A stretch of DNA of 40,843 nt from a virus, in the UHGV virus genome UHGV-1472163; one strand, 5' to 3'. Under the pieces are notes generated by a model. It ran no database searches. It saw nothing but the letters and a program-made list of their open reading frames with translations, and had not been told where the DNA came from. The translations under genes were made by a program, and so were the position numbers. The stretch's first letter is position 1, and the number at the start of each line of letters is the position of its first letter. Below are positions 19,649 to 20,134 of the stretch, one piece after another.

Positions 19649-20134
19649 ATGAATAACTTTGTTGAAATTACCTCAAGAATTGGTCGCATGTACCAAGATT
19701 TTCTTATAAGTGGAAAGGGGTCTGGCGACATCATAGAGGAAATTGACAAGCTAAGTGCAGAGCTGAGAAGGAATGGGTGTGTTAATTCTATCTTTTTTGA
19801 AACTTTGCTAAAGCAAGGCTTCATGTTTGACATGATTAATTACAACAAAGTCGCACCTAGTGCTTCGCAAAAATCATATGTGTACGTTCTGCATGCTGAA
19901 GATAGTGGGCTAACAAAAATAGGGTTTAGTCGCAGGGTTAATAAACGAATTTCAGAGATATCTCGCATGAGTGGTGGGAAGCTAAATCTAATTGCAAAGA
20001 TTCCGGCCGATAGAGAGCTTGAAACCAAATTGCACCAAAAATATTACAACTATAGGTCGCACGGGGAGTGGTTTAGTCTCAATCGTTGTCATTTGAAAGA
20101 GCTAAAAGAAATGCCTGGTAACGAACTGAAATAA
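19649..20134 (+). CDS. T5orf172/GIY-YIG-like domain protein (moron)
   Basis: 161-aa ORF in AT-rich segment; C-terminal half YVYVLHAEDSGLTKIGFSRRVNKRISEI...HGEWF resembles T5orf172 domain as recalled. Confidence 0.6.
   Translation: MNNFVEITSRIGRMYQDFLISGKGSGDIIEEIDKLSAELRRNGCVNSIFFETLLKQGFMFDMINYNKVAPSASQKSYVYVLHAEDSGLTKIGFSRRVNKRISEISRMSGGKLNLIAKIPADRELETKLHQKYYNYRSHGEWFSLNRCHLKELKEMPGNELK

Follow-up and report, generated by a model that had tools for sequence, protein, structure and literature searches.

The 40,843-nucleotide stretch UHGV-1472163, referred to here as the window, is a P22-like (Lederbergvirus) prophage of Escherichia coli with HK620-like virion genes. Between its lysis genes and its terminase genes lies an open reading frame (ORF) of 161 residues (Table 1), which is predicted to encode a nuclease made up of an hkbL-like helical domain and a T5orf172/MUG113 domain of the GIY-YIG superfamily. 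From its junctions, the ORF is an exact allelic replacement of the interior of a Rha-type gene, with the expression signals of that gene retained. We tentatively favour the view that it is an accessory endonuclease gene of the late operon, mobile by recombination, which would serve homing-like spread or competition between phages and would be targeted via the hkbL-like domain; this is the most plausible of the accounts considered, and falls just short of being probable in itself. The readings of the gene as a defence system, a regulator or a helper of the lytic cycle are weaker, and are weighed below with the evidence that bears on them.

It should be noted that the gene has been annotated before and is of an ordinary kind: it encodes an accessory GIY-YIG/T5orf172 nuclease of phages, and the variable slot in which it lies is well known. 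RefSeq already names its product 'GIY-YIG nuclease family protein' (WP_001058931), and its presence in the databases at such a position will not surprise a phage genomicist. What is added here, apart from the exact replacement within a Rha shell, is a leader of ~150 nucleotides that serves at least four unrelated types of ORF and occurs in ~9% of complete E. coli genomes, the assignment of an uncharacterised N-terminus to hkbL/PHROG 875, which is genomically coupled to KilA-N/antirepressor genes, and the coupling of several nuclease-family genes to those of KilA-N or Bro-N proteins. If that coupling reflects physical interaction, it would provide a first functional handle on a common and unexplained network of KilA-N, Bro-N, Rha and T5orf172 genes in phages. 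The same view, if true, suggests a targeting route for nucleases that have no DNA-binding domain, and would bring temperate enterobacterial phages, besides lytic vibriophages, into the range of T5orf172 homing-type biology. The gene is present in E. coli W and in phage epsilon34, and is therefore experimentally accessible.

Table 1. Features of the locus and of related loci (window coordinates unless another record is named).
Feature	Position	Strand	Remarks
161-residue ORF	19649–20134	+	ATG start; hkbL-like helical domain + T5orf172/MUG113 GIY-YIG nuclease domain (predicted)
N-terminal domain, residues 1–68	19649–19852	+	Three-helix bundle (helices 3–21, 25–41 and 47–68), confident model
C-terminal T5orf172/MUG113 domain, residues 76–155	19874–20113	+	Beta-beta-alpha-beta-alpha GIY-YIG core
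Conserved leader	19503–19648	+	146 nucleotides; contains the Shine–Dalgarno sequence AAGG (19637–19640)
Intrinsic terminator-like hairpin	19478–19502 (hairpin 19478–19497)	+	AGCCTCGCATTTGCGGGGCT + T run; distal to Rz
Remnant of Rha 3' end	20132–20154	+	Non-coding; last seven codons + stop (IPGLTN*), from alignment with Sf101 Rha
Conserved spacer	20145–20279	+	Common to Sf6, Huey, HK620 and SEN22; ends at slot B
Remnant ORF spanning slot B	20234–20341	+	35 codons
DUF2560/orf80-like gene	20382–20624	+	PHROG 571; conserved right-hand neighbour of the slot
Rz	18867–19304		Upstream of the nuclease ORF
50-residue ORF	19292–19444		Upstream of the nuclease ORF; PHROG 11822, like Sf6 gp65
terS	20627–21067		Downstream of the DUF2560 gene
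terL	21064–22476		Downstream of terS
Q homolog	16796–17419
Rha/ANT (KilAC) antirepressor-type protein	14718–15437	+	nin region
Bro-N protein	35763–36488	+	'ant moron' region, before the tailspike gene
Slot-B Gp49-family gene, Sf6 (L009)	1642–2022		gp66
Slot-B Gp49-family gene, E. coli D7 (L007)	3666–4046
Slot-B Gp49-family gene, Huey (L004)	2462–2842		Labelled 'anti-CRISPR'

Domains of the predicted nuclease

A reading made from the sequence only had recognised a T5orf172-like pattern in the C-terminal half of the protein, and profile matches, fold and conserved residues all bear this out. Residues 69–161 are basic (isoelectric point, pI, 9.7). The Pfam models MUG113 (PF13455; E=4.2e-13, 50.1 bits, residues 90–154) and T5orf172 (PF10544; E=1.1e-9, 39.2 bits, residues 77–154) match well above their gathering scores of 22.3 and 20 bits, respectively, and PHROG 4284, a family of unknown function, matches the protein over its full length (E=1.4e-75). 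This full-length match, together with the fact that homologs down to ~22% identity keep both domains, shows that the ORF is not a chance one. A scan of the protein against NCBIfam gave no match. The structure model of the C-terminal domain (predicted local distance difference test score 93) has the GIY-YIG fold, a three-stranded sheet with flanking helices. Foldseek with the full-length model returned nothing from the PDB below E=0.46, and a sequence search of the PDB with the family profile gave zero matches at E<=10; when the C-terminal domain is modelled alone, GIY-YIG structural neighbours do appear, the best being the structure-specific nuclease Slx1.

The residues expected of a nuclease are strongly conserved. 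Y79, K90-I91-G92, R100, E125, L128-H129 and E140-W141-F142 are invariant in 21 full-length relatives, and Y79, K90, G92, R100, E125, H129, E140 and W141 are still invariant in a domain alignment of 48 sequences. The second tyrosine is replaced by K90 (giving KIG), as is usual for T5orf172, and the spacing of ten residues from K90 to R100 equals that from Y17 to R27 in I-TevI. On the basis of motif spacing and a published alignment of Odn, Y79, R100 and E140 would correspond to Y6, R27 and E75 of I-TevI, and the glutamate of the GEWF motif to the catalytic glutamate mutated in Odn of ICP1, a T5orf172 protein whose nuclease activity depends on the equivalent residue (PMC8263062). The predicted catalytic tyrosine (Y79) and arginine (R100) and the predicted metal-binding glutamate (E140) thus appear to be retained. 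The domain itself is common; an exhaustive HMMER search returned 17,130 cluster representatives that carry it. The full two-domain architecture was found in only ~15–20 cases. Pfam scans of ten of the nearest T5orf172-domain relatives revealed no informative N-terminal partner domains, and a profile search for related loci yielded, with close alignment, only two full-length relatives.

The N-terminal 70 residues had been described as lacking a recognisable motif. It is true that they are unmatched in a Pfam scan, but they form a confidently modelled three-helix domain that is homologous to HK620 hkbL and PHROG 875. PHROG 875 is matched by the full protein (E=1.4e-6), more strongly by the N-domain alone (E=2.4e-7), and by nine of the 17 N-domains in the family; the 85-residue hkbL of HK620 itself belongs to PHROG 875 (E=3e-54). 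Alignment of hkbL with the profile of the family N-domains by hhalign gave a probability of 98.3% (E=1.8e-14), with the common motif LRxNGCVN, and with hkbL as the tblastn query, the N-domains of two homologs (Erwinia and P0010) are matched directly at 38–40% identity. This link of the N-domain to the KilA-N/Bro-N-associated hkbL is previously unremarked and is new here. The domain is acidic (pI 5.2). A tblastn search of phages with the N-domain alone found identical genes only, and a search with the N-domain profile found the domain only in T5orf172 fusions or in truncated fragments of the same gene (P0164 and P0013), with no other effectors.

What the domain does may be judged from the company that it keeps. 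As a separate gene, hkbL was found in 57 phage records, among them HK620, HK97, HK022, mEp phages, Stx2 phages and Klebsiella phages, and in all four loci inspected (HK620, HK97, mEp235 and Klebsiella phage RAH1) it starts 0–4 bp after a KilA-N/antirepressor gene or overlaps it. The contexts of the fused hkbL-like + T5orf172 family were examined in 13 lineages. A KilA-N or Bro-N gene is adjacent in four of these: P0034 follows a KilA-N gene after a gap of 35 bp, P0017 precedes a KilA-N/P63C gene, and P0138 and P0101 each have a Bro-N gene downstream, with an overlap of 4 bp. Fusions of T5orf172 with Bro-N and with KilA-N domains are known (PMC8096241). From such gene neighbourhoods, the hkbL-like domain might target the nuclease either by oligomerisation or by docking onto a DNA-binding protein of the KilA-N, Bro-N or Rha type. 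The window encodes two proteins of these kinds at a distance from the nuclease gene, namely the Rha/ANT and Bro-N proteins of Table 1, and the Bro-N domain of the latter shows 46–56% identity with the Bro-N genes found overlapping members of the nuclease family in other genomes (L031 and L034). Next to the window gene, no homolog of hkbK, Sf101 Rha or a Vibrio KilA-N gene was found. The nin region also contains a 174-residue ORF (15727–16248, + strand) with an HNH_3 endonuclease domain (E=1e-16), which may be a second free-standing homing-type nuclease gene of the prophage.

As to position, the gene lies between lysis and terminase genes in eight of the 13 lineages, although the lysis and terminase modules are unrelated among lineages, and tail-gene clusters host three others, at the same hotspot as the antirepressor + hkbL pair of RAH1. 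This second hotspot falls between the tail-tube and the tail-chaperone/tape-measure genes of siphoviral prophages (RAH1, L030 1307–2055; L032 4001–4492; L043; L044).

The slot, its leader and its alleles

The sequence-only reading had placed the 161-residue ORF after a terminator, between the lysis genes and an orf80-like gene followed by terS, and its coordinates prove exact. Holin and endolysin genes lie upstream, followed by Rz with an embedded Rz1. The boundaries of the slot were obtained from pairwise blastn and junction alignments. In Sf101, which carries Rha, and in HK620, where the KilA-N gene hkbK precedes hkbL, homology with the window extends as far as 19653 and spans the entire leader, the Shine–Dalgarno (SD) sequence and 'ATGAA'. 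Homology resumes on the 3' side at 20132 for Sf101 and at 20145 for HK620. The Rha codons ATC CCC GGA CTC ACC AAT TAA are kept at 20134–20154, tblastn places residues 174–180 of Sf101 Rha on 20131–20151, and the TAA stop of the nuclease ORF (20132–20134) is formed from Rha 'gTA Atc' in another frame. As the nuclease ORF has kept the leader, SD, ATG and 3' end of Rha, it has no promoter of its own.

This bears on the description of the gene as a classic moron. It is variable between conserved neighbours, and the segment is AT-rich, as had been stated: the ORF has a guanine + cytosine (GC) content of 0.387, and 0.389 at third codon positions (GC3), against 0.46–0.51 in its neighbours and the window (flanks ~0.49, Rz 0.505, terS 0.472, terL 0.512, whole window 0.462). 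However, neither a promoter nor a terminator of its own was found, and one ORF has replaced another within a Rha shell, instead of a gene being inserted between two adjacent ones; in the strict sense of the term, it is not a moron, and the description holds only in part. The terminator-like hairpin upstream (an 8-bp stem with six GC pairs) is annotated as a rho-independent terminator in epsilon34, with equivalents annotated in HK106 and mEp235; like the leader, it is found also in the Rha and KilA-N relatives, and belongs to the conserved flank, outside the cassette.

Other phages show how variable the slot is. In Huey, which has genes labelled 'anti-CRISPR', homology stops at the terminator (19501), and Sf6 and SEN22 lack 19467–20144 entirely, which leaves the slot almost vacant. 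Between 20279 and 20281 there is a further insertion point, slot B. Nothing is inserted there in the window, but Sf6, E. coli D7 and Huey have a Gp49-family gene. The remnant ORF that spans slot B in the window is what is left of a slot-B gene that was deleted: in the view of those who annotated epsilon34, it begins like the N-terminus of ST64T orf118 (their misc_feature maps to 20234–20317), and a coding sequence of 24 residues is annotated in Sf101. Directly after slot B, upstream of the DUF2560 gene, is a near-perfect palindrome of 35 bp (20284–20318; ATTGCAGAGACCATTCA A TGAGTGGTCTCGACAAT) with 17-nucleotide arms that are 82% complementary, which could be a protein-binding or recombination site. 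In two metagenomic ORFs, parts of the protein are joined with DUF2560 (P0005) and with an N-terminus like that of Rz (P0014), respectively; these chimeras suggest slot deletions or rearrangements, or else assembly artefacts.

The leader is far more conserved than the ORFs behind it, and 11 copies align with 83% column identity. The segment 19504–19653 was found in 59 phage records and in 486 of 5426 complete E. coli genomes. Downstream of it are mostly Rha genes, but also KilA-N genes, the epsilon34-type nuclease and a second nuclease lineage (HK106 gp64, Chlobot, and E. coli A15 and Res13), the proteins of which are ~30% identical to that of the window. The epsilon34-type alleles (window, epsilon34 and D7) have a deletion of two nucleotides in the spacer between SD and ATG, 19641–19648 (AAAGGTAA--ACGCTATG), which is absent from the Rha, KilA-N and HK106-type alleles and may change the efficiency of translation. 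As D7 shows, the deletion is kept across subtypes of the leader, and the recombination joints must therefore lie inside the leader.

RNAalifold predicts a long hairpin in the leader that pairs CCUUU with the SD. Only one of its 33 pairs is compensatory, the element being too invariant for a test of covariation; the fold of the single sequence is unexceptional when compared with shuffled sequences (z=-1.5), and Rfam gives nothing significant in 19200–20450. In window-type leaders, there is a possible register-shifted pairing CCCGAG/CUCGGG (~19554–19559 with 19606–19611), in place of which leaders of the HK620, HK106 and D7 type have CGAGAG/CUCUCG; such a pairing would form a pseudoknot with the hairpin. 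The rha genes of P22 and phi80 have been linked to integration host factor (IHF); the IHF consensus WATCAANNNNTTR was not found in the leader. On balance, the leader probably serves as a recombination linker, and is perhaps an element of translational control.

The distribution of the gene agrees with its being mobile. The protein is 100% identical to gp68 of Salmonella phage epsilon34, gp64 of g341c and a protein of NM-3, and the region 19200–20450 is 100% identical to E. coli strain E1. A comparison with related prophages had been proposed, and shows the gene to be sporadic in a hypervariable slot and neither ubiquitous nor essential: it is carried by five of the 241 phage records that share the flanks (three phages) and by 58 of the 5426 complete E. 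coli genomes, as a single chromosomal copy with at least 98.8% nucleotide identity. The latter count implies that the gene is rare and non-essential. It is always found after Rz and before DUF2560, and yet copies at least 98.8% identical adjoin at least four different downstream modules, three of which are distinct terminase types. The terminase pairs are of 146 and 470 residues in the window, 162 and 499 in E. coli W (P22-type), and 146 and 471 in D7, which has the extra Gp49 gene; epsilon34 has yet another downstream module. The gene has spread recently across phages of E. coli and Salmonella, and its base composition is foreign to its flanks. That it moves between phages by homologous recombination in the leader and the spacer is shown by the mosaic joints.

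The same distribution weighs on the proposal of a housekeeping role in the lytic cycle, in which the protein would assist the terminase (compare the HNH protein gp74 of HK97), resolve branched intermediates before packaging in the manner of Slx1, or degrade host DNA. This would suit a gene that directly precedes the terminase genes within the late operon, that occupies the lysis–terminase position in most lineages examined (eight of 13) and whose product has Slx1 as its best structural neighbour. Against it are the rarity of the gene among both genomes and flank-sharing records, its association with at least three terminase types and, in epsilon34, a fourth downstream module, and its interchangeability with non-nuclease genes or with a near-empty slot (Sf6 and SEN22) despite the same packaging genes; HK106, moreover, carries both a nuclease gene of the family and an HNH helper. 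We regard a helper function as very improbable, and the packaging form of it was rejected on the grounds of rarity and of the several terminase types.

Alternatively, the protein might take the place of Rha or KilA-N as a regulator or DNA-binding effector and act mainly by binding to DNA or to a partner protein, for example in the control of host or phage genes or in an antirepressor-like role, with the GIY-YIG domain as a binding module or one that makes regulatory nicks only. Its occupation of the exact Rha shell would fit, as would the existence of KilA-N/hkbL modules as alleles of the same slot and the homology between the N-domain and hkbL, whose gene partners those of KilA-N regulators. 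It has also been suggested, from the association with Bro-N and KilA-N, that T5orf172 binds DNA, and CapR of PLE, a relative of the T5orf172 homing endonuclease genes (HEGs), has been domesticated as a repressor (PMC8096241). CapR, however, corresponds to the DNA-binding domain of the HEGs and not to the T5orf172 domain (PMC8096241), and the N-domain of the window protein is acidic, with no helix-turn-helix (HTH) found. In addition, the catalytic tyrosine, arginine and glutamate and the KIG/LH/GEWF signature are invariant down to ~22% identity, which argues for retained catalysis. A purely regulatory role thus seems unlikely.

Expression and possible function

In lambdoid phages, the lysis, packaging and virion genes form one late operon, transcribed from PR' with Q-type antitermination. 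The window has a Q homolog, and with a single late operon the late transcript must cross the slot. A consensus scan for sigma70-like promoters on both strands of 19250–20450 found none, against 1.9 expected by chance. No terminator on the + strand was found downstream of the ORF, where there is only a weak site on the – strand; the second + strand hit is a weak 6-bp hairpin within the ORF itself (19803–19818). We infer expression of the gene late in lytic growth and, probably, silence in the lysogen. Most likely, RNA polymerase antiterminated by Q would read through the upstream terminator, so that the gene would be transcribed with the lysis and packaging genes, and pairing of the leader hairpin with the SD might damp translation.

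These considerations bear on the suggestion that the gene acts in anti-phage defence, in which a nuclease made in the lysogen would, as a single-gene system, cleave incoming phage DNA or trigger abortive infection. A single gene of low GC carried as cargo in a prophage would be consistent with this, and the upstream terminator could insulate it from late transcription. There is also a weak match in PADLOC-DB v2 (18 bits, E=4e-4) to PDC-S57, which is a candidate family, and a second one to PDC-M64B (E=0.034). However, there is no sigma70-like promoter between the terminator and the ATG or elsewhere in 19250–20450, and the gene has the same orientation as the late operon around it, with a leader, SD and ATG that are those of the Rha/KilA-N cassettes. 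The protein has no match to the hidden Markov models of PD-T4-3 or of a validated PADLOC system, and none in NCBIfam. Relatives also occur in virion-gene clusters and in the lysis–terminase slot of many phages, including the isolated phages epsilon34, g341c and HK106. Defence from the prophage, as proposed in the sequence-only reading, is thus left with an 18-bit match to a candidate family and no promoter, and we consider it unlikely; of the two roles named there, that of a selfish element appears to fit better.

As an accessory endonuclease of the late operon, the protein would most likely act when elements are in conflict at a late stage of infection, by cutting or nicking DNA. One possible outcome is homing-like conversion of rival alleles of the slot; an alternative is damage to co-resident or co-infecting lambdoid genomes. 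The gene has some features of an HEG, being sporadic among near-identical relatives and intergenic beside conserved genes, and its product may work like one. No DNA-binding domain that could confer specificity for a long target was recognised in the protein; for this reason, and because no target site was identified, we do not file the gene as an HEG.

There is also a more elaborate scheme, which we consider distinctly unlikely. Here, the hkbL-like domain would dock the T5orf172 nuclease on DNA-bound proteins of the KilA-N, Bro-N or Rha type, to give a split, two-component nuclease with a defined target. An orphan copy, such as that of the window, would make use of a DNA-binding protein supplied by a rival lambdoid phage (the KilA-N partner of a stand-alone hkbL in the allelic slot, for instance), cut the rival at or near the same locus and so convert KilA-N/hkbL or Rha alleles to the nuclease allele, with the leader providing a homology arm and also holding back the translation of a toxic enzyme.

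Several observations count against the accessory endonuclease reading and temper our preference for it. The nuclease activity of the protein, and of its family, is a prediction. Residues 1–68 have no zinc finger, no clusters of cysteine or histidine, no HTH and no other recognisable DNA-binding domain; in a survey of T5orf172 HEGs, by contrast, 87% had CapR-like zinc fingers (PMC10448857). An adjacent KilA-N or Bro-N gene, onto which the hkbL-like domain might dock, is absent from the window and from nine of the 13 lineages. No cognate target site could be predicted; the flanks of carriers and non-carriers are 98.9–99.4% identical, and the slot, in its alternative alleles, holds other genes and is not cleanly empty. 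Joints of the mosaic kind arise from ordinary lambdoid recombination at boundary sequences, and so need no nuclease. Finally, the late timing is argued from the logic of the operon, and the promoter scan was one for the sigma70 consensus, which a weak or non-sigma70 promoter might escape.

Relation to known systems

The closest counterparts are epsilon34 gp68, g341c gp64 and the NM-3 homolog, in which the same protein occupies the same slot, with flanks of 99.2–99.4% nucleotide identity over 1.1–1.25 kb. The window differs from the epsilon34-type phages in being an E. coli prophage with HK620-like virion genes and a different terminase module. Nothing on the nuclease gene was found in the epsilon34 genome paper or in the literature on Mug113, on hkbL/hkbK and on rha, P22 and IHF. 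The Rha genes of P22 and Sf101 type share the leader, SD, ATG(AA) and 3' end, and represent the allele that the nuclease ORF has displaced; the Rha protein, of the Rha/antirepressor family (PHROG 518), is unrelated to the nuclease.

The hkbK–hkbL pair of HK620, the KilA-N gene and HK97p61 of HK97, and gp59–gp60 of mEp235 have the same slot and the same leader, and hkbL corresponds to approximately residues 1–67 of the window protein. hkbL, however, has a basic C-terminal tail within its 85 residues, has no nuclease domain and is translationally coupled to the upstream KilA-N gene, whereas in the window the domain is fused to a nuclease and no KilA-N gene is adjacent. The Bro-N–T5orf172 and KilA-N–T5orf172 fusions of DNA viruses, which form part of a domain-shuffling network (cited in PMC8096241), combine the same parts that are found as adjacent or overlapping genes in four lineages of the family. 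In contrast to those fusions, the parts are here in two genes, or the partner is absent, and there is an extra hkbL-like domain; an interaction between them is putative. PD-T4-3, a single-gene GIY-YIG restriction enzyme that acts against phages in E. coli (PDB 9u75; PMC12923530), has 248 residues and a different architecture.

Among studied systems, the closest are Odn and the T5orf172 HEGs, which are free-standing in ICP1-like and T5-like phages and have a terminase gene in 35% of their neighbourhoods (PMC10448857). These genes and Odn (Gp88) share the subfamily with the window protein, including the retained arginine and glutamate and the lack of histidine or tyrosine in helix 1 (PMC10448857 and PMC8263062). 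They are likewise small, free-standing and sporadic, often lie beside terminase genes and are found at boundaries of genetic exchange (PMC10448857). They differ in having CapR-like zinc-finger or RepA_N domains, where the window protein has an acidic hkbL-like domain. Unlike them and Odn, the window gene belongs to temperate lambdoid phages and has a leader in common with alleles that are not nucleases, and both homing and cleavage are, in its case, putative.

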